The notes beneath the pieces were generated by a model that did not search any database, was not told the DNA's origin, and saw only the letters and a list, made by a program, of their open reading frames with translations. Of a DNA stretch of 64,000 bases, positions 32,515 to 42,806 are shown piece by piece. The position numbers were made by a program, and so were the translations under genes. Numbering within the stretch: the stretch's first letter is position 1; each line of letters opens with the position of its first letter. Source of the DNA: Candidatus Eiseniibacteriota bacterium (lineage in GTDB: Bacteria > Eisenbacteria > RBG-16-71-46 > JABDJR01); the NCBI GenBank assembly GCA_963762255.1, contig CAVXKA010000001.1, positions 1,056,001 to 1,120,000 of the forward strand. The letters are read 5' to 3'.

Positions 32515-33306
32515 TCATTCTAACACCGAGAAAACGGCGCGCTCGATCCACCACCGCGCGCCGCACCGTGGGCAGAACGCTTCCACGGCGGGCTCGCCCC
32601 GAAACAGTTCCTCTTCCTTGCCCGCGAAGATCCCCCGCAGCGCGGTGATGATCTTTTCGGGATTGCAGCCGCAGCGGAAGCGGATCGTTTGGGTCTCAAG
32701 GAGGTCCTTCTTCCCCGCGAAGAGCGCCGCCGCGGATTGCGCGTCGAGGGCGCGCACGCGATCCGCGCCACCGTCGGGGAGCGCCTTCACCATGCCGTAG
32801 CGGTCGCCGCCGAGTTCGAAGAAGCGGGCGGGGGACTGCTCCGACCGTTCGTAGTAGTCCTCGAACATGCCGAGCACGTCGAGCCCGTCCACGTCGATGG
32901 TGCTCTGCATGGGACCGGTCGCGGGCCGGAATGCCTGAACGAACATGCGGCTTGTGGATCCGGTGCGGACGTCTTCGGTGAAGACCCGGCCGGTCAGCGT
33001 GCGCTCGCCGGGGTCGCCGGTGAGGAAGAGGTTCAAGGGCGGTGTTTGGACGTTGATGGTCACGCCGACCGATTCGTCGGGGGGGCGCCCGACGAGATGC
33101 AGCGCCATCGCCGCGAGCCCCTCGCGCATCATGGTGAGGGAGAGGCCGTCGATGGGGAGTTCCCAGCGATGGACATGCTCGTTGTAGGCGCGGAAGATGG
33201 GCTCGAAGTCGGCCTCGGCGAGGCTCAACACATGGGCGGGATCGAGGTAGCGGCGGACTGTGGCCGCCCCGGACTTCTCCGGCGGGGGCATGGGAGCTTC
33301 ACTCAT
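32515..33306 (-). CDS. hslO: Hsp33 family redox chaperone
   Basis: YYERSEQ, FRCGC...CPRCG zinc motif. Confidence 0.85.
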   Translation of the reverse strand: MSEAPMPPPEKSGAATVRRYLDPAHVLSLAEADFEPIFRAYNEHVHRWELPIDGLSLTMMREGLAAMALHLVGRPPDESVGVTINVQTPPLNLFLTGDPGERTLTGRVFTEDVRTGSTSRMFVQAFRPATGPMQSTIDVDGLDVLGMFEDYYERSEQSPARFFELGGDRYGMVKALPDGGADRVRALDAQSAAALFAGKKDLLETQTIRFRCGCNPEKIITALRGIFAGKEEELFRGEPAVEAFCPRCGARWWIERAVFSVLE

Positions 33307-33380
33307 CGTGATATCCTAGCAGCCTTCGCAAGCCGCCCCGACCGGCTGGGACCCGACGCTCCTCCACCCTGGGCATACCG

Positions 33381-33596
33381 ATGAATTCCAGTTGGACCGA
33401 CGATCAAATCACCGCCGCCGTGGCTCAGTCGATGAAGGAGAAGGACCTGCACTCCGCCTTCACCCCGCTCGTGCGCCGATGCGTGCTGGATGCGAGCGAC
33501 GAGTGGCGGGTCTGCTGCGAAAGCGATTGCGATCCCTGCGTCAACGATCTGGCGCCGGCGGTGGATCGGGCGAGGGAGATACTGGGGGCGGGGTAG
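33381..33596 (+). CDS. Small Cys-rich protein (oxidoreductase-like CCxSxCxPCV domain)
   Basis: CCESDCDPCV motif; divergent from hslO. Confidence 0.65.
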   Translation: MNSSWTDDQITAAVAQSMKEKDLHSAFTPLVRRCVLDASDEWRVCCESDCDPCVNDLAPAVDRAREILGAG

Positions 33597-33788
33597 GTCA
33601 TGCACGGTTCTGGTGGTCTACTGGCGAGAACCACCCAGGTCGGGGTGCCTAGTCCGCGATGCCACAACTTCACATTTCCTGGCTGTCTCCAGCCCTGTGC
33701 CGCGCCTTCGACGGGATTCACCATGAATCCCCTCTTTGAATGTCAGGTCGGCTGCCTTCATTATCGAGAGACCCTCGGACCAGGCGAA

Positions 33789-34223
33789 TTATGGACATAA
33801 CAGCCGAATGCCCTTGACGACATCCAACCACGCCGTGTCCACGTTTTCCCATGATGTGACGGGTATCCCGTCAGTTGGCAACGCTTGCAGCTTACCAAAG
33901 GGTGCAGTGTGCCAATCGCAAGGCCTTGCGATCACCGGAACAACAATGCAGTCTCCAGCCTTCCTTCTGTCCATTGCTTGAGCAACCTCGACGCCCCAGC
34001 AATAGTCAGAGGCAATGAAATCAGCACTCACCAGGAATATCACTATGTCGGCCAGCTGAAGCTCCTGATCAATAACAGTGGCCCACTCAGCGCCCGGAAT
34101 GATCTTGCGATCGTGCCACTCCTGAACCTTTCCCTGCCGCTTGAGGAGACTCAGACTAGCTACAAGACGATCCCGATGCGCCTCATCGCAATGCGAGTAG
34201 CTGAGGAACACGCGCTTTGCCAT
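33789..34223 (-). CDS. Stand-alone TIR domain protein (TIR_2 type)
   Basis: VFLSYSH, WHDRKIIPG, LVSADFIASDYCWGVE (catalytic-position Glu), VVPVIARPCDW; GGAGG RBS. Confidence 0.93.
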   Translation of the reverse strand: MAKRVFLSYSHCDEAHRDRLVASLSLLKRQGKVQEWHDRKIIPGAEWATVIDQELQLADIVIFLVSADFIASDYCWGVEVAQAMDRRKAGDCIVVPVIARPCDWHTAPFGKLQALPTDGIPVTSWENVDTAWLDVVKGIRLLCP

Positions 34224-34266
34224 TCTCTACCCTCCAGTATCCAGTAGCGGGAGAACAACCGGAACC

Positions 34267-35634
34267 TCACGATTGTGGCGCACCCACCTTCGCGAATTCG
34301 AGAACACAGAATACCCTCTGAGCAAGGCGCTCAGGTTGCCCAGGCCAAGGTACAGCTCCAAGGTGATGCTCATGCACAAGGGTCAGGTCGCCCATACTAA
34401 GGACCTCGTCCCGGAACAGACTGCAGTCGAAGCTCCATAGGGCATTCTGCCGCCCAAAACCTGCCCCGCCGATATCAGCCAACAAGTCCTCCGGTTCAGC
34501 ATCCTCTGATAATTGCGCTGGCTTGTGGAATCCGAGGGACCTACACGGAATCGAAACAAGGAATGTGCCTCCAGGATTCAGTGCAGATAGGGCCAAGGAA
34601 AGCGCTCTTCGGTAATCCCTTACGTGCTGAAAGAACTCCAGTGCCAGGACGACATCAAACCGCAACCCGGGGTTCCACTGCAAGAAATCTCCTACCAAGA
34701 ACTCACAGTTGGCGTGTTCGGTCCGTGCACGCGCAACCTTCTCCAAAGAACATTCAACGCCCATGACCCGGGATGCACCGTGCAGCTTTGCCAAGCCGCA
34801 CACCTGCCCCTCAGCCGAACCAATCTCTAGAACGGTTTGGTCGCGCACAATCTTGGAAAGCCGAAATTCAACATACTCCAGGCGCCGCACGTGCAGCGGC
34901 CGACTGTACATGTCTCGTTGATGATGGCGCTCTGCCTCCAAGGAACGAACTCTACCAAGCCTCTCATCGAATCGCCTAGCGCGTGTTCCCTCAAGAGTCG
35001 TCCATTCAGCCTCTATGCCTACTGGACCCGAGGTCCGCGAGGAAAGGAAGCGAAGCGTCGGTAGGCTTGCGCCTTCCCATTGAAGGCAGACAAAGGCACC
35101 ACATTCAAAGTCAAAGACGAAGTCACTCCCGGAGGTCTCCAATGCCCGCAAGATGAGTCCGTTGAGAATGCCCCCATGGGCAATGACGGCAATCGGGCCT
35201 CTCATCCGCACAGCCTCCTGCAATGCCGTCCAAGCCGCCGCGCATCGAACTAAGAAGGCCGACATCACCTGTTGCGTATCTCGACCACCTTCGTGAATGT
35301 TGCGCCGGGCACCTCTCCAGGCCAAGGTCCGAATCGTCTCCGGAGACACGCCGACATTCTCAGCATCACTACGGCGTGGGCCTTCACTGAGCAGATCCGA
35401 TTCAATCATTCTAACGTCTCTCGCAAGATCGGTGGACATGAAGCGCGCAGTGATCTGTGCCGTCTCTTTCGCGCGCCGGAGAGGTGAATGCCAAATCTCC
35501 ACGACTTGCGAATAGCGAAGAGCCCAGGCAAGTGCACTTGCATCGAGCGTTCCAGCTGCCGACAATCCGGATTCATCCATATCTGCCGTGGCATGCCCAT
35601 GCCGCGCTAGAAAGAGTTCGTAGTGCGCTTTCAT
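34267..35634 (-). CDS. Histidine phosphatase + class I SAM methyltransferase fusion
   Basis: LARHG, HSPLRRAKETA, IAHGG in the N half; VLEIGSAEG, FDVVLALE, LNPGGTFL in the C half. Confidence 0.88.
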   Translation of the reverse strand: MKAHYELFLARHGHATADMDESGLSAAGTLDASALAWALRYSQVVEIWHSPLRRAKETAQITARFMSTDLARDVRMIESDLLSEGPRRSDAENVGVSPETIRTLAWRGARRNIHEGGRDTQQVMSAFLVRCAAAWTALQEAVRMRGPIAVIAHGGILNGLILRALETSGSDFVFDFECGAFVCLQWEGASLPTLRFLSSRTSGPVGIEAEWTTLEGTRARRFDERLGRVRSLEAERHHQRDMYSRPLHVRRLEYVEFRLSKIVRDQTVLEIGSAEGQVCGLAKLHGASRVMGVECSLEKVARARTEHANCEFLVGDFLQWNPGLRFDVVLALEFFQHVRDYRRALSLALSALNPGGTFLVSIPCRSLGFHKPAQLSEDAEPEDLLADIGGAGFGRQNALWSFDCSLFRDEVLSMGDLTLVHEHHLGAVPWPGQPERLAQRVFCVLEFAKVGAPQS

Positions 35635-37275
35635 GGTGCCGTTGCCTCCGCAATCTCTTCCGCGGTAAACAATCGTGGGATACTCAAGTCTTCGTTAAGC
35701 ACCCGAGTGAGATACTGGCATGCCCTTTTGATCATAGCAGCGGCCTGCCCGCCTGTGGATTGCTCCAGATCCTCCATCTTGCGAGTGGATCGGGCCGCCC
35801 ACCAGCCTGCGCCACAAAGGCGGAACAACCGAGTTGCGACCACGGCGAAGTAGTAAGCCCCGCTGGGTGCAGAAGAAGCTCTAAGATCTGCCAAGTACTC
35901 GTGGCTCTGCGCAATCCGGAAGACATCAGAACGTCCTTACGCCGTGCATCATGCCGGTAAAGAGGTGGCGCTCCGCATCCTCTGGGTAACCCGAAGCCGC
36001 AAGGCACCGCCCTTGGTCAATCAGAACTGCAAACACCTCGCGGGTATCGCCTACCTCCCGTGCCGTCCGAAGGGACTCATCCAGTAGCCGTGTCGCCTCT
36101 GACCATAAGCGTTGAGCAATGAACACTGCAGCGACCCTGTGCTTGGCAAATCCAATGCCCCGCGAGTTGTCATGCTCTATCGCGATATCGAGACCTTCTC
36201 GTGCCCAGGACATCGCCTTGACCAAGTCCAGTTCTTGATATAGATAGCAGAGTGAGAGCATTCCGCACGCAATGCCACGGCTACGAATGAGGGCGCTGGC
36301 CGCGGCCGGAGTGCTGGGGAGCGACGCCAACCTATCGTACTCCTCAAGTGCAAGAAGCATCTCCGACTTTGCTTCCTGGAACTCCCCTATGCGACGCAGG
36401 GTCGCGCCTAGGTTAATGCGGACCCGCGGAATGAATTCGCTACCCTGGGGAAGCAAGCTGAGTGAATCCCGGTAGCACTGCGCCGCCCGAGCAAGGTGTC
36501 CCTGCTCCCTGAGGATATTTCCGTGTCCATTCAATGCATGAGAGCGCACGGGTTTGGCACCAAGACGCTCTGCGATTCCAAACGCGAGAGTGTATTTGTG
36601 GTAGGCCGCAAACTGCTCTCCGATCTTGCGATCACAATCCGCCGCGCGAATCAGAAGGGACGCAGTTTTTGGCGTTGGTTCGTTTTCGCACTTTTTCAAT
36701 GCTGCTTCGTAAGCATTGTGAGCAAGACGATTCTGGCCTCCCCGAGCGAATTCCTCCGCCTCGCGGATGAGTGCAGCAAGCGTAGCCTCAGTTCTCGGCG
36801 GAAGCTTTGTGAGCCACACGTCCACACACTTATTGAGGACGCGTCGTATCTCGATGAAGAGTTGAGTACGGCGCCCGTCATTCTCGTAGTCGGTCTGTAC
36901 TGTCTCCCCAACGTTTGGGAATGGCTGGATGCTTCTCAGCCACTCGCTGTCTTGTGCCTCTATGGTGCATGGACGAAGAACAACGGGAATGACATCGATA
37001 CCGTCGCTCTCCCTGCAACGTCTGATCTCTGGAACTTCGTGGTTTTGGATATCTTGGTCATCCAGCCATTCTTGACCTAGAAGCAGGATGGCTATGTGCG
37101 CCTGATCCAGGTGCTTCTTCCGATCTTCGCTCCTATCAGCGCCAGGGGTGATCTTTCCCGGATGCCAGAGCGCGACGCCCTTTGATTCAAGGCCAGAGAG
37201 AATCGTAAGTAACTCGTGATTGCGGTCTTTCGCAACGCAGCTGATGTAGATTTCAACGAATGGGTAGTCGGGCAT
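35631..37275 (-). CDS. TIR-TPR protein; one-base frameshift near 35930
   Basis: N-terminal divergent TIR (IYISC...IAILLLG...VIPVVLRPC) then TPRs (ALNGHGNILREQG, INLGATLRRIGEFQEA). Deleting one A at 35930-35931 continues the frame into 35631..35894, whose stop overlaps the next ATG (ATGA). Confidence 0.82.
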
Positions 37276-37282
37276 CGGTAGC

Positions 37283-38428
37283 TTATCCTTCCATCGAACC
37301 TTGCGCTTGATCCAGGGTATCGGTGATGATGTCATCCCACATCGGGTTGTGGGTGGAACCCGGTAGTGCATTGAGAGTCGTCTTTACCAGCGGGCAGATC
37401 GGAACCAAGAGGGAATCATGTTCATACTTCGCGACTACCGGACAGGCCCCTGGGGGAAGGTTGTTTGCTAGGGAGATATACGATAGATCTTCGGGTGACT
37501 TGCTCAGGGCATTACTGTCCCTGATGGCCCACGCACGAACCCCCACAGCTTTGAGAAGGGGACAGCGGTAGACGTTCCCATCGGGAGTCAGATTGTACGT
37601 ATCAGCTGAAGAGGCCGGTAATCCAACGCCTGCCTTCTCAAGTGCCGCCGCCGCCACAGGCGGAACGAAAGCTACTGGTGCCCTCAGGTAGACGCGGCTC
37701 TTCGCTGCCAATTTTCGCCACGCCAGCACAAGTGCGAGCCATTCCCTGGGGCTCGGATTCAAGGGCGCGAGATGAGTCGGGTCCTGTGCAATATCCATGC
37801 GATGCAGATTGACAACAGTGACAGCTCTAGCCGCAGCGTAGGCCATGAGTGATTCAATGGACGCGGCGTTTGCTCTGGAGACGACAGTGGAGATACGCAA
37901 GGGGAGCCCCAACATGCCCGCACGCCGTATGCACTCATCTGCACGAGCGAATGCCCCCTTGAAACGGAGGCGATCGTTAACGGATTCGATTGGTGAATCC
38001 ACGCTCACAGATAGAAGGCGAATGCCTACCGCGCGAAGGTGATCAAGTTGCTCGGGATGGAGCGACCCATTCGTTTGGACTATTAGCTCAAATCCAAGTT
38101 CTCTGATGGCACTAACGAGTTCGTGGAATTCTGCGAAGAGAGCGGGCTCCCCGCCCACAAGTGTCACAAGAGTCACGCCATGAGACTTGAACCGGTCCAG
38201 CGCGGGGATAATGTCATGCATTGGCAATGTGCAGTGCGCCGTCCTTGCCTGGTGGGATAGGTAGCAGTACTGACAACTACAATTACAGTGTTCAGACGGT
38301 GTGAGGAAGAGGTGCTTGCCCATCGAGAAGTGCGGTCGGGACGGATCTACAGCAGAGGTGTTGGGTGGTAGCGATGCGGAGCCGCCCCCTGTCAATCGCG
38401 GGTCGCCGAGACGGTTCGTGTGTTCCAT
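37283..38428 (-). CDS. Radical SAM enzyme with a twitch/SPASM-like tail (start 38428 or 38323)
   Basis: CNCSCQYC, GGEP, QTNG, SVSVDS, TPDGNVYRCP, later CP...CP; stop lies 7 nt before the TIR-TPR ATG. Confidence 0.92.
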   Translation of the reverse strand: MEHTNRLGDPRLTGGGSASLPPNTSAVDPSRPHFSMGKHLFLTPSEHCNCSCQYCYLSHQARTAHCTLPMHDIIPALDRFKSHGVTLVTLVGGEPALFAEFHELVSAIRELGFELIVQTNGSLHPEQLDHLRAVGIRLLSVSVDSPIESVNDRLRFKGAFARADECIRRAGMLGLPLRISTVVSRANAASIESLMAYAAARAVTVVNLHRMDIAQDPTHLAPLNPSPREWLALVLAWRKLAAKSRVYLRAPVAFVPPVAAAALEKAGVGLPASSADTYNLTPDGNVYRCPLLKAVGVRAWAIRDSNALSKSPEDLSYISLANNLPPGACPVVAKYEHDSLLVPICPLVKTTLNALPGSTHNPMWDDIITDTLDQAQGSMEG

Positions 38429-38914
38429 GGTCGATGTGGTTCCTTGTCCAGCATCATCACGCACGATTTCCAATGGCAGGCCTTTGCTTACATATACAGT
38501 ATCCCTATGGACTCTGTACAGCCACACTGGGGTCATGTGGGCCGCTCATGAACAAACGCGAACCCTACCGCTACGCCCCCGTCCCCGGGACCCGCACCAA
38601 GCTCTGCAAGGTCACCCCCCATCCCGCTCGCTGCCGACCCTCGCCGTAGACCCTCAATGCCGTCTACGCCGAGGTCGGGCTTCCAGCACTCTCCCCCCTT
38701 CCCCCCGGGAGCGCCGCGGCGCCGCCAACAACCGTCGAACCAAGCCCGCCTCGCCAAACAATCCGGTAAGTACCCAGATGCGAGGAAGACCAGAACAGAG
38801 AACCCCGCCGACTTGACAAACTCATAGGTACTCCCCCTACGTCGGCAGAAACACGTACCTTGCCAGGAACACCAGCCCCAGGATCCGCACCAGCCCTGAC
38901 GCCGCGCGCCCGCG

Positions 38915-39236
38915 TCAGGAGGCGAGCTTCAAGACGGGGTAAGCGATGAACTCGATCGCGATCCCGTCGGCGATGGACCACGCGAGCGGCATCATCACGA
39001 TCACGAGGAAGGCCGGGATCGCCTCGGTGAGGTCGTCCCACGTGATGCGGCCGATGGACTGGGCCATGAGGCAGCCCACAAGGATCAACGCGGGGACGGT
39101 GAACGGGCTGAACACGCGTCCGTCGATGGTGACTGGCGCCGCCACCGCGGCAGCGATGGGGCTCAAGAAGAGCGTGGTCAGGAAGAGCGCCGAAGTCCAT
39201 TCCGCCGGCGGAGAGGATGCCCGGGTTCACGAACAC
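38915..39236 (-). pseudogene. NCS2/AzgA-type nucleobase permease relic with a large internal deletion
   Basis: N-terminal motif VFVNPGILSAGGMDFGA joined out of frame to C-terminal LFLTTLFLSP...PALILVG...WDDLTEAIPAF...SIADGI. Confidence 0.8.
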
Positions 39237-39272
39237 GAGGCTCGGGGGTGGGGCCGCCGGGAGCAGTTGCGT

Positions 39273-39731
39273 TCACGCCCTACGGCGGCCTGATTCCAGG
39301 CGACGCCCGCGGGAACACTTCGCGCAACGTCCGTAGACAACGAACTGCTTACCCATCACCTCGTCACCGGAGTCGACGGCGATCCGAGGTAGGGATTGAC
39401 CGCTCAGGCATCGCATCCCCCCGCACTGAAGACAGAGGAAGTGCGGGTGATTCCCGGGGCAGCCGACAGTACCCGGTGCGTGAGCGCAGAAGTGCCAGAT
39501 CGCGTCTTTGCCCTGGACGCGGTGAACGAGGCCGGCGCCCTGCAGAGCGGCCAGCGTTCGGTACAGCGTGACCCGGTCCATCGGGTCGCCCCCCAGCTTC
39601 TCGCTGATCTGACTGTGCGACATCGGCCGGCCAGTGTTCACAAGAACGCGCAAGACCGAGATCCGCCCCGGTGTTCCCCGCACGCCCGACACTTTCAGAA
39701 GCTCCCGGATGCTCTCCGCCGATCGCGCCAC
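39273..39731 (-). CDS. Fur family transcriptional regulator
   Basis: TPGRISVL, DRVTLYRTL, HPHFLCLQCG, YGRCAKC. Confidence 0.92.
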   Translation of the reverse strand: MARSAESIRELLKVSGVRGTPGRISVLRVLVNTGRPMSHSQISEKLGGDPMDRVTLYRTLAALQGAGLVHRVQGKDAIWHFCAHAPGTVGCPGNHPHFLCLQCGGMRCLSGQSLPRIAVDSGDEVMGKQFVVYGRCAKCSRGRRLESGRRRA

Positions 39732-41815: not shown

Positions 41816-41878
41816 TTCGCTTTCGAGGCCCCCCTGCGTTTGAGTGGCAGCCCGGAAACGTTACCCGACGCCCGGTGT

Positions 41879-41899
41879 AAACGCAACTAAGTTGCATTT
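41879..41899. promoter_or_regulatory. Fur-family operator, 10-1-10 palindrome AAACGCAACT-A-AGTTGCATTT
   Basis: AT-rich palindrome with one mismatch, upstream of an operon that encodes a Fur-family regulator. Confidence 0.7.
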
Positions 41900-42023
41900 C
41901 GGATTCGTGGGCGCCACCGTGCCGCCACCGTGCTACCGTGCCGCCGCCGTGCTACCCTACCGCCGCCGGGCCGCCCGGAGCCGCTTTCGGCGACGGAGCC
42001 GCAGGTCCGGAGAGGGGAGAGCG

Positions 42024-42806
42024 ATGACGACCTCGCGCGCGTTCCTTCGCCCGGCCGCAACGGCGGCGTTTCTTCTGGTCGTGTTCGCAGCATGCGGAGG
42101 ACCCAAGGGGGACCAGGCCCGCAAGGGCGACGAGGGCCTCCCTCCGGGTCCCGTTGTCACCACGCATGAGACCGGTCTCGCCGCGGACACCCTCGCCGAG
42201 TTCCTCAATCCCTTCTTCGTGCCCTACAACCGCGCGCTCTATATGACGTCGCAGGGCGATCCGGCCGCCGCTGCGGCGCTCGACTCCGCGCACGCGGCGT
42301 GGGCCGCCTTCGCCGACCGCGCGCCCAAGGTCTACACCGACGACGTGAAGTGGCCGGCCCGCCGGGACGACGTGGAGACTGCGCTCGTCCATGCGGTGAC
42401 CCTTCTCCGCAGGGGTGACACCAAGGCCGCGCACCTCGCGCTGGAGCCGGTGCGCCTGCAGTTGAGCGACCAGAATCACGAGGTGGGGATCGTCGCGTGG
42501 CCGGATCTTCTGCTGGCGTTCCATGAACCGATGGAGGAGTTGGTCGAGGCGAAGGACGCGCAGTTCATGCGCTCACGGGTGGTGGCGCTGCGGCTCGCTC
42601 TGAGCAAGCTCGGCGGCTACCCTCTCGGACGGTTCAACGCCGCCGAACGCGAGCGGATGGGGTTGAGGCTGAACCAGATCGCGGTCGAACTCGACAGCGT
42701 CGAGATCTCCATGGGGGAGACCGCGGCCGATCTCGCGGAGCCGCACCGGCACGCGACACAGCTCAAGAAGGCCTTCGTGGATCTCTACACGCACTCGCGG
42801 TACTAG
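42024..42806 (+). CDS. Hypothetical helical lipoprotein
   Basis: Lipobox FAAC; AHLALE and FHEPME His/Glu motifs; GGAGA RBS. Confidence 0.75.
   Translation: MTTSRAFLRPAATAAFLLVVFAACGGPKGDQARKGDEGLPPGPVVTTHETGLAADTLAEFLNPFFVPYNRALYMTSQGDPAAAAALDSAHAAWAAFADRAPKVYTDDVKWPARRDDVETALVHAVTLLRRGDTKAAHLALEPVRLQLSDQNHEVGIVAWPDLLLAFHEPMEELVEAKDAQFMRSRVVALRLALSKLGGYPLGRFNAAERERMGLRLNQIAVELDSVEISMGETAADLAEPHRHATQLKKAFVDLYTHSRY

Follow-up and report, generated by a model that had tools for sequence, protein, structure and literature searches.

TIR enzymes make a small set of signals derived from nicotinamide adenine dinucleotide (NAD). For the radical S-adenosylmethionine (SAM) enzymes of defence systems, among them viperins and Ophion, the known or proposed products are analogues of nucleotides. 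New immune chemistry would be indicated by a cassette that joins a TIR domain to a radical SAM enzyme: either a TIR product would be matured enzymatically, or TIR would gate the production of an antimetabolite. Here we describe a candidate cassette of this kind, located at positions 33789-38428 on the minus strand of a 64,000-nucleotide stretch of DNA (the window; C1:1056001-1120000) from a Candidatus Eiseniibacteriota bacterium whose genome (G000) comprises 4.1 Mb in three contigs. Four co-oriented open reading frames (ORFs) encode, in gene order, a radical SAM enzyme (rSAM), a TIR protein with an array of tetratricopeptide repeats (TIR-TPR), a fusion of a histidine phosphatase with a methyltransferase (HPMT) and a small protein composed of a TIR domain only (small TIR).

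Several described systems resemble parts of this cassette. A recent survey of Thoeris distinguishes types I-XI and names 29 putative types, including the TPR-bearing effector ThsI; none of the words radical SAM, rSAM, methyltransferase and phosphatase appears in its main text (bioRxiv 10.64898/2025.12.03.692087). As in Thoeris, a small TIR protein that is detected by a ThsB-type model (PDLC00420) lies in a multigene operon and is the presumed signal maker. However, the partners in the window are a second TIR domain fused to TPR and three tailoring enzymes.

A second precedent is the two-gene BcTir/BcTpr operon, which pairs a small TIR protein with a protein that carries an N-terminal NAD-glycosidase and a C-terminal TPR region. 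According to the preprint, the two proteins form a complex and defend Escherichia coli against T phages, and other Tpr-centred assemblies have variable partners that include YspA, patatin, LSDAT and calcineurin (bioRxiv 10.1101/2023.05.26.542521). In the window, one protein carries both TIR_2 and TPR and another carries TIR_2, 1.7 kb apart on the same strand, which is a match of architecture only. Unlike our cassette, the Tpr assemblies described there lack rSAM or HPMT partners.

The rSAM and HPMT genes can be likened, by composition alone, to Ophion. Its description presents a radical SAM enzyme (OpnA), a PHP phosphatase (OpnB) and a phosphoribosyltransferase (PRTase; OpnC) that together protect against jumbo phages and are proposed to make modified nucleotides that halt transcription (bioRxiv 10.1101/2025.09.30.679545). 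The shared compositional logic is that of a non-viperin radical SAM enzyme, a phosphatase and an enzyme that acts on the bond between ribosyl and base. In contrast to Ophion as described there, our locus has His_Phos_1 instead of PHP and TIR instead of PRTase, plus a methyltransferase and TPR, and Pfam detects no PHP or PRTase domain in any protein of the low-GC islet that carries the cassette. Viperins are matched by the radical SAM core of rSAM, but this enzyme also has a twitch/SPASM-like C-terminal part with conserved cysteines. Likewise, the FxSxx-COOH (Fxs) loci of actinobacteria combine a radical SAM enzyme with TIR-like and TPR proteins, whereas the NCBIfam models FxsC_Nterm and FxSxx_TPR score the window proteins at 23.2 bits (cut-off 130) and 20.3 bits (cut-off 300). 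To our knowledge, a phosphatase-methyltransferase fusion is not part of Fxs.

Our literature search returned no paper that combines radical SAM, a TIR domain, TPR and anti-phage function, and none that adds a histidine phosphatase. Thus, the union of a TIR/TIR-TPR pair with a set of radical SAM, phosphatase and methyltransferase activities is undescribed in the literature searched, although each half has a functional analogue. A first-pass annotation of this DNA, made from the sequence alone, had likewise recognized no named system. This view holds, as PADLOC (applied as a library of hidden Markov models at the level of components) gives component-level matches only, and the NCBIfam models for Fxs, viperin and MoaA stay far under their cut-offs. 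The same annotation saw no ThsA, cyclase, Argonaute or STAND NTPase, and indeed none is encoded.

We tentatively read the locus as a very rare, Thoeris-like conflict cassette that is centred on NAD or nucleotides, carries new tailoring enzymes and is most probably directed against phages. This is our preferred interpretation, which leans on analogy with the systems above and which we hold with somewhat less than even confidence. In a first module, the ThsB-family TIR-only protein and TIR-TPR would act as a Thoeris-like TIR pair, in which sensing or assembly would fall to the TPR array and the active sites of the two TIR domains, with Glu79 and Glu80, would cleave NAD+ or carry out ADP-ribose transfer or cyclization. 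In a second module, rSAM and HPMT would jointly build or modify a small molecule of nucleoside type that bears phosphate. This molecule might be the TIR product, which would thereby mature into a signal, or, if viperins and Ophion are a guide, an antiviral nucleotide analogue. A narrower version, in which the TIR product is itself the substrate from which rSAM, the histidine phosphatase and the methyltransferase produce a new modified derivative of ADP-ribose or a nucleoside that serves as a signal or an antiviral antimetabolite, is rather improbable; if true, it would constitute the first biosynthetic pathway downstream of a bacterial TIR. A cassette with such chemistry would, moreover, assign a role to a phosphatase-methyltransferase family that is otherwise unstudied.

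We infer each functional step of this scheme. The points in its favour include the intact motifs, the tight co-directional spacing of the genes, the foreign composition of the islet and its absence from kin, the match to ThsB1 and the plasmid location of full-length members of that family, the rSAM and HPMT relatives on contigs of equal length, the weakly supported TIR complex, the precedents of BcTir/BcTpr, ThsI and Ophion, the closeness of rSAM to the nucleoside-modifying enzyme BlsE, and the resemblance of the methyltransferase half of HPMT to small-molecule and cap-guanine methyltransferases.

Operon layout and features of the four proteins

The domains, motifs and layout of the operon are observed directly. 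All four domain assignments of the first-pass annotation agree with Pfam, which matches rSAM (381 aa, 37283-38428, minus strand, as are all the genes that follow) to Radical_SAM (1.8e-20), TIR-TPR (449 aa as it stands, 35926-37275) to TIR_2 (4.6e-8), TPR_12 (3.7e-14) and TPR_MalT (2.4e-9), HPMT (455 aa, 34267-35634) to His_Phos_1 (3.4e-14) and Methyltransf_23 (4.9e-14), and the small TIR (144 aa, 33789-34223) to TIR_2 (4.4e-14). All four long ORFs are intact and their catalytic motifs are present; the CxxxCxxC, RHG, SAM and TIR Glu motifs named in that annotation could each be located. Its spacings of 7 nucleotides from the rSAM stop to the TIR-TPR ATG (TAAGCTACCGATG) and of 43 nucleotides from the HPMT stop to the ATG of the small TIR are exact. 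A purine-rich, Shine-Dalgarno-like stretch lies upstream of each of the four starts, and that of TIR-TPR reads GGAAGGA. Codon-usage scores of the four genes range from 0.14 to 0.21 in frame versus -0.19 to -0.33 off frame, which places their coding nature far beyond chance. An in-frame alternative start at 38536 would extend rSAM to 417 aa, although its two close relatives, P0003 and P0004, begin near the start at 38428.

The one element of the layout that requires revision is an ATGA overlap that had been placed between TIR-TPR and HPMT. This sequence does exist at the HPMT start, but the frame that ends in it is a 100-codon ORF (35631-35933, minus strand; identified by three-frame translation and codon-usage score), not the TIR-TPR ORF, which stops at a TGA at 35926, 291 nucleotides before HPMT. 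Therefore, such an overlap requires either a frameshift in the reading of TIR-TPR or a tail that is a small gene in its own right. The tail lies in the +1 frame relative to TIR-TPR and is open from 35933 to 35631. When scored with the codon usage of the islet itself, it reaches 0.136 per codon, versus -0.07 and -0.14 in the other two frames. Because this score is near the values of 0.14-0.21 for the four genes, we conclude that the stretch is or recently was coding.

Two explanations for the tail were considered. Its start coincides with the end of the TIR-TPR frame, and any shift must fall within approximately 9 nucleotides before the TGA at 35926. Since no convincing ribosome-binding site precedes its candidate starts, we favour the view that the tail is the frameshifted C-terminus of a TIR-TPR protein that was originally about 550 aa long, displaced by a mutation or by an error in the assembly, although it may instead be a small gene of its own. 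Given that the tail retains coding-like codon usage, the break would be recent or would reflect a sequencing error. Searches with the tail ORF gave no Pfam match, no usable Atlas match and no paralogue in its own genome.

Within TIR-TPR, the TIR domain spans approximately 36919-37251 and the TPR array approximately 35962-36717. The Atlas contains proteins of TIR-TPR and of DUF4062-TPR architecture, and the fusion of TPR to TIR is of immune type. The small TIR matches the PADLOC ThsB1 model PDLC00420 at 1.3e-55 (186.8 bits), over model positions 3-139 of 319 only. Plasmid-encoded TIR proteins of approximately 320 aa share 45-55% identity with it over their N-terminal 140 residues, and 41 of the 42 matching plasmid records cover at least 80% of the small TIR. 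The protein ends at a natural domain border, and no trace of the C-terminal half of the ThsB1-type family (approximately 180 aa) was found downstream of it or elsewhere in the window. The member of the approximately 320-aa family on a Desulfosarcina plasmid adjoins genes annotated as anti-phage DUF1156/PLD. As an aside, this family occurs as stand-alone genes without a ThsA neighbour on plasmids of Sinorhizobium fredii NGR234, Pseudomonas aeruginosa and Desulfosarcina sp. BuS5, and its C-terminal half of approximately 180 aa is conserved and uncharacterized.

The two TIR domains of the window are 29% identical to each other and both carry a glutamate at the aligned TIR position (E79 in the small TIR and E80 in TIR-TPR). 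A predicted complex of the two proteins scored 0.34 versus 0.02 for the best of three controls, a value in the range (0.60 or below) where passes are more often wrong than right, comprising 5 of 78 solved complexes and all 4 passing mismatches of 180. Separate runs agreed in at least 71% of contacts with a partner predicted local distance difference test (pLDDT) value of at least 82. Of 78 solved complexes, 51 attain the mark applied here, as do 2 of 108 mismatched pairs. We regard this as weak support for a predicted complex of TIR-TPR and the small TIR, and the pass may reflect likeness to solved TIR-TIR assemblies.

The rSAM enzyme carries its CxxxCxxC motif as CNCSCQYC (residues 48-55; 38264-38287, minus strand), which is invariant in the alignment of this family. 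In its C-terminal part, the sequence GVGLP (residues 267-271; 37616-37630, minus strand) places Leu270 at a conserved Cys position. This residue replaces the first Cys of the C-terminal cluster, which is present in at least 90% of 20 aligned relatives, and the three other C-terminal Cys residues (289, 329 and 345) are invariant and retained. By sequence, the best solved relative is BlsE (7vob; 1.7e-25 with a five-sequence profile), followed by SkfB, PqqE, viperins and MoaA. BlsE is a cytosylglucuronate decarboxylase, a nucleoside-modifying enzyme of blasticidin S biosynthesis.

The AlphaFold (AF2) model of rSAM (pLDDT 76.8, predicted template-modelling score 0.81) has SuiB, BlsE, SkfB and anSME as its top Foldseek matches, with template-modelling scores normalized to the query of 0.56-0.62, and CteB is also listed. 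The modelled fold is nearest to twitch/SPASM-type enzymes, whose substrates are peptides or nucleoside-like small molecules. The Pfam SPASM model finds no match in rSAM, though the C-terminal part is twitch/SPASM-like and has three of the four cysteines. Many NCBIfam peptide-maturase models match at 1e-12 to 1e-16, with all equivalogs far under their cut-offs. The PADLOC models for prokaryotic viperins (pVip) match at 4.4e-21 over model positions 8-160 of 257, and solved viperins match at approximately 1e-14. Two specific identities were rejected: that of a MoaA-type GTP 3',8-cyclase (TIGR02666, 73.7 bits versus a cut-off of 284) and that of a prokaryotic viperin (NF038283 viperin_w_prok, 63.6 bits versus a cut-off of 180, with the core alone covered).

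HPMT combines a histidine phosphatase half (approximately 35119-35616) with a class I SAM methyltransferase half (approximately 34288-34989), and it retains the RHG (residues 11-13) and AHGG (152-155) motifs of the former and SAM motif I, EIGSAEG (270-276), of the latter. The RH(G/A) and HGG phosphatase motifs are also kept in P0024, its single full-length relative. The phosphatase half has alpha-ribazole phosphatase CobC as its best NCBIfam match, a weak one at 36.3 bits versus a cut-off of 162.9, and CobC is again its best match in the PDB (E 0.078). The methyltransferase half is a member of a distinct family, whose signatures are LDIGCAEG, SEVLQH and IGGAGFGKQNAxWKF. In the AF2 model of HPMT (pLDDT 79.1), the fold of this half is nearest to small-molecule methyltransferases (RebM, ToxA, XrdM and NodS) and to mRNA cap guanine-N7 methyltransferase. 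A PADLOC mad2 match of HPMT (1.4e-14) covers 136 of 492 model positions only.

Rarity, linkage and foreign origin

Both the rarity and the foreign origin of the cassette are direct observations. The cassette is a near-singleton in public data, as judged by a word-index search of 5.8 billion proteins and an exhaustive HMMER scan of 1.84 billion cluster representatives. The word-index search returned two close relatives of rSAM, P0003 (46% identity) and P0004 (43%), together with P0005 and P0006 at approximately 30%. With HPMT it returned only the query itself, and with TIR-TPR it found no relatives, nor are there any in the bacterium's own genome. On plasmids, TIR-TPR has one match, which involves the TIR portion only. 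The exhaustive scan added one full-length relative of HPMT, P0024 (463 aa, 40% identity, 4.7e-93, covering residues 5-449), below which are stand-alone methyltransferases of approximately 240 aa that match HPMT residues 216-449 with E-values from 7e-43 down.

The first-pass annotation had held that its proposal would fail if the four genes never co-occurred elsewhere. We find that P0003 and P0024 are JGI singletons, each on one contig of 5,124 bp. This probable co-occurrence of rSAM and HPMT relatives meets that challenge in part and stops short of one that includes all four genes. If P0003 and P0024 are taken to be on the same contig, then rSAM and HPMT are linked in a second place and form a conserved pair, which is probable but indirect. 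The two genes would account for 2.45 kb of the contig, which would leave 2.7 kb, just enough space for a TIR-TPR and a TIR gene. P0004 is on a 28,307-bp ENA contig, and none of 19 methyltransferase or phosphatase relatives checked lies on a contig of that size; ten of these relatives are not on a contig of 5,124 bp either. We treat the four genes together as a candidate system.

The matches listed in broader searches with rSAM and HPMT are all distant. A scan of 185,579 species genomes with the rSAM profile yielded 415 stretches with 382 relatives, of which the best 80 are 24-31% identical, and the same scan of JGI metagenomes yielded at least 269 relatives, of which the best 80 are 20-33% identical. 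HPMT has no match in plasmids, phages or viral contigs. Across the genomes of 40 relatives, it has one partial match to the methyltransferase core at 32% identity and nothing else, and across 206 genomes of the phylum (including the unpublished G081), 40 others match the Rossmann core only. For rSAM, viral contigs contain nothing relevant, also when P0004 is the query, and phage matches are restricted to the core. Plasmid matches to rSAM (approximately 25% identity) were rejected as relatives, as they sit in an unrelated cluster of a nucleotidyltransferase, two radical SAM genes, gltX and NUDIX.

Two observations from these searches concern other systems. The distant rSAM family represented by P0005 and P0006 consists of proteins of approximately 337 aa, mostly from Desulfobacterota, where the family is widespread; they are 20-33% identical to rSAM and share its YRCP motif and C-terminal Cys pattern. 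In addition, the plasmid cluster of a nucleotidyltransferase, two radical SAM genes and a plasmid-borne gltX, with NUDIX nearby, is present in Kitasatospora (NZ_CP108410.1, 6063-10678) and Nocardia (NZ_CP109554.1, 6018-10457), and it may represent a separate system that acts on nucleotides or tRNA.

The cassette lies in a low-GC islet with approximate boundaries at 33600-38540, as defined by GC content, GC content at third codon positions (GC3) and synteny with related genomes. The lower GC content noted in the first-pass annotation is borne out, and a foreign origin of the islet is supported. Overall GC content is 0.563 in the islet versus 0.68 and 0.664 in the flanks (approximately 56% versus 67% for the genome), windows of 500 nucleotides have values of 0.53-0.59 within the islet versus 0.65-0.70 outside, and GC3 of the islet genes is 0.57-0.60 versus about 0.8-0.9 in neighbouring genes. 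In three family-level kin (G004, G006 and G007), homologues of the transketolase, Hsp33 and ORF 33303 are followed within approximately 1.3 kb by a homologue of ORF 41844-42806. Because these kin join the flanks directly, our genome has additional DNA here, namely the islet and 3 kb on its right side. The islet is absent from the syntenic site in all three kin with conserved flanks, and a fourth (G003) lacks synteny. We conclude that the islet is horizontally acquired. No integrase, transposase, tRNA target or flanking direct or att-like repeats were found around it.

Competing explanations

Several observations weigh against an anti-phage cassette. The islet is flanked by housekeeping genes (to the left, transketolase-like and Hsp33-like genes; to the right, genes for a Fur-like regulator, DUF364 and FmdE), and no recognizable defence island is present, a setting for which the first-pass annotation had proposed to check. 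No Thoeris effector was recognized, with the ThsA models of PADLOC and the SIR2, Macro and SLOG models of Pfam unmatched in all four proteins. Among the 160 loci of distant rSAM relatives (20-33% identity; the best 80 from each scan), none has any of the other three genes. The genome contains 11 TIR_2 matches, of which 9 are outside the islet, and this makes a TIR gene beside any other gene less surprising. Furthermore, the structural neighbours of the modelled rSAM are mostly peptide-modifying enzymes (SuiB, SkfB and anSME), the four proteins and their close relatives have no recorded phenotype or chemistry, and a decaying mosaic could account for the broken frame, the loss of a Cys and the TIR protein reduced to its domain.

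A biosynthetic rather than an immune function is an alternative that we consider unlikely. Under this explanation, the cassette would make a small molecule, such as a nucleoside-type natural product or a cofactor-like metabolite, with the TIR proteins as N-glycosidases or base-exchange enzymes, the phosphatase removing phosphate, the methyltransferase adding methyl groups and rSAM rearranging or decarboxylating a sugar or base. The position of BlsE as best solved relative of rSAM (1.7e-25), the weak CobC matches of the phosphatase half in both NCBIfam and the PDB, the natural-product enzymes (RebM, ToxA, XrdM and NodS) near the methyltransferase fold and the lack of a defence-island context would all suit such a pathway. 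However, the small TIR belongs to a family covered by the ThsB model and found on plasmids beside defence genes, and the fusion of TIR to TPR is of immune type. Moreover, the islet contains no transporter, regulator or resistance gene, and all family matches are far below curated cut-offs.

It is also conceivable, although we judge it improbable, that the locus has no present function. It might represent fragments of two unrelated mobile modules, an rSAM-HPMT pair and a set of TIR genes, that were juxtaposed on foreign DNA and are now being lost. Signs of decay are the +1 frame break at 35926-35933, the Leu270 substitution where at least 90% of 20 relatives have Cys, and a small TIR that lacks the C-terminal half of approximately 180 aa with no remnant downstream. 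No mobility genes or att repeats are left, and a truncated permease remnant adjoins the islet, from which we conclude that the region has undergone local rearrangement. Even so, the four long ORFs are intact with their motifs, Shine-Dalgarno sequences and operon spacing. The modules are interleaved (rSAM, TIR-TPR, HPMT, TIR) rather than side by side, the coding-like codon usage of the tail indicates that the break is recent or a sequencing error, and the small TIR ends at a natural domain border. Whichever function the cassette had originally, the copy in this genome may be impaired by the frame break and Leu270, with the domain-only TIR as a possible third sign.

Finally, a peptide- or protein-modifying system of the RiPP (ribosomally synthesized and post-translationally modified peptide), Fxs or HXS type, in which rSAM would modify a small peptide (possibly the tail ORF) or a protein of the cassette and TIR and TPR would be accessory, is very unlikely: it could draw on the peptide maturases among the Foldseek matches (SuiB, SkfB, anSME and CteB) and NCBIfam models, on the union of radical SAM, TIR-like and TPR proteins in Fxs loci with its weak FxsC_Nterm and FxSxx_TPR matches, on HXS as a described radical SAM-matured defence effector, and on an unexplained 100-codon coding-like frame inside the operon, but the Fxs models score far under their cut-offs, the tail fits a frameshift better than a separate gene because it has no Shine-Dalgarno sequence and begins at the end of the TIR-TPR frame, and peptide chemistry is a poor match for a phosphatase and a methyltransferase of small-molecule-like type. 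The absence of a precursor peptide noted in the first-pass annotation is consistent with our survey of the intergenic ORFs of at least 20 aa in the islet and of the tail ORF, where an FxSxx-type C-terminus is absent.

Other features of the region

Promoter and terminator scans of the islet gave results at or below shuffle expectation, and Rfam returned zero matches up to E = 1 across 33200-39400, with no riboswitch among them. The single sigma-70-like site (TCCACA-17-TATGAT with TG; 35731-35759, minus strand) is not significant, as one was found versus 2.0 expected from shuffles. It sits within the tail ORF, approximately 100 nucleotides upstream of HPMT.

Elsewhere in this genome, which is unusually rich in TIR domains, the nine other TIR_2 matches are mostly in open frames of 380-1405 aa. 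Three of them cluster within 3 kb on contig C1 and three within 25 kb on contig C3, and example loci are C1:1254949-1255308, C3:406900-407253, C1:1202511-1205498 and C3:416595-431848.

A truncated xanthine/uracil-type permease gene, of which the final 83 codons remain, lies at 38915-39166 (minus strand), approximately 380 bp beyond the right edge of the islet. This remnant shares 80% identity with the C-terminal end of a 449-aa ORF in another kin genome (G005), which matches PF00860 at 2.9e-42, and the rest of the gene is missing. Further to the right, ARAGORN calls an 85-nucleotide tRNA-Gln at 42568-42652 (plus strand), within ORF 41844-42806, a frame with conservation of residues 117-320 in three kin. 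This call may be false, or the tRNA and the ORF may overlap.

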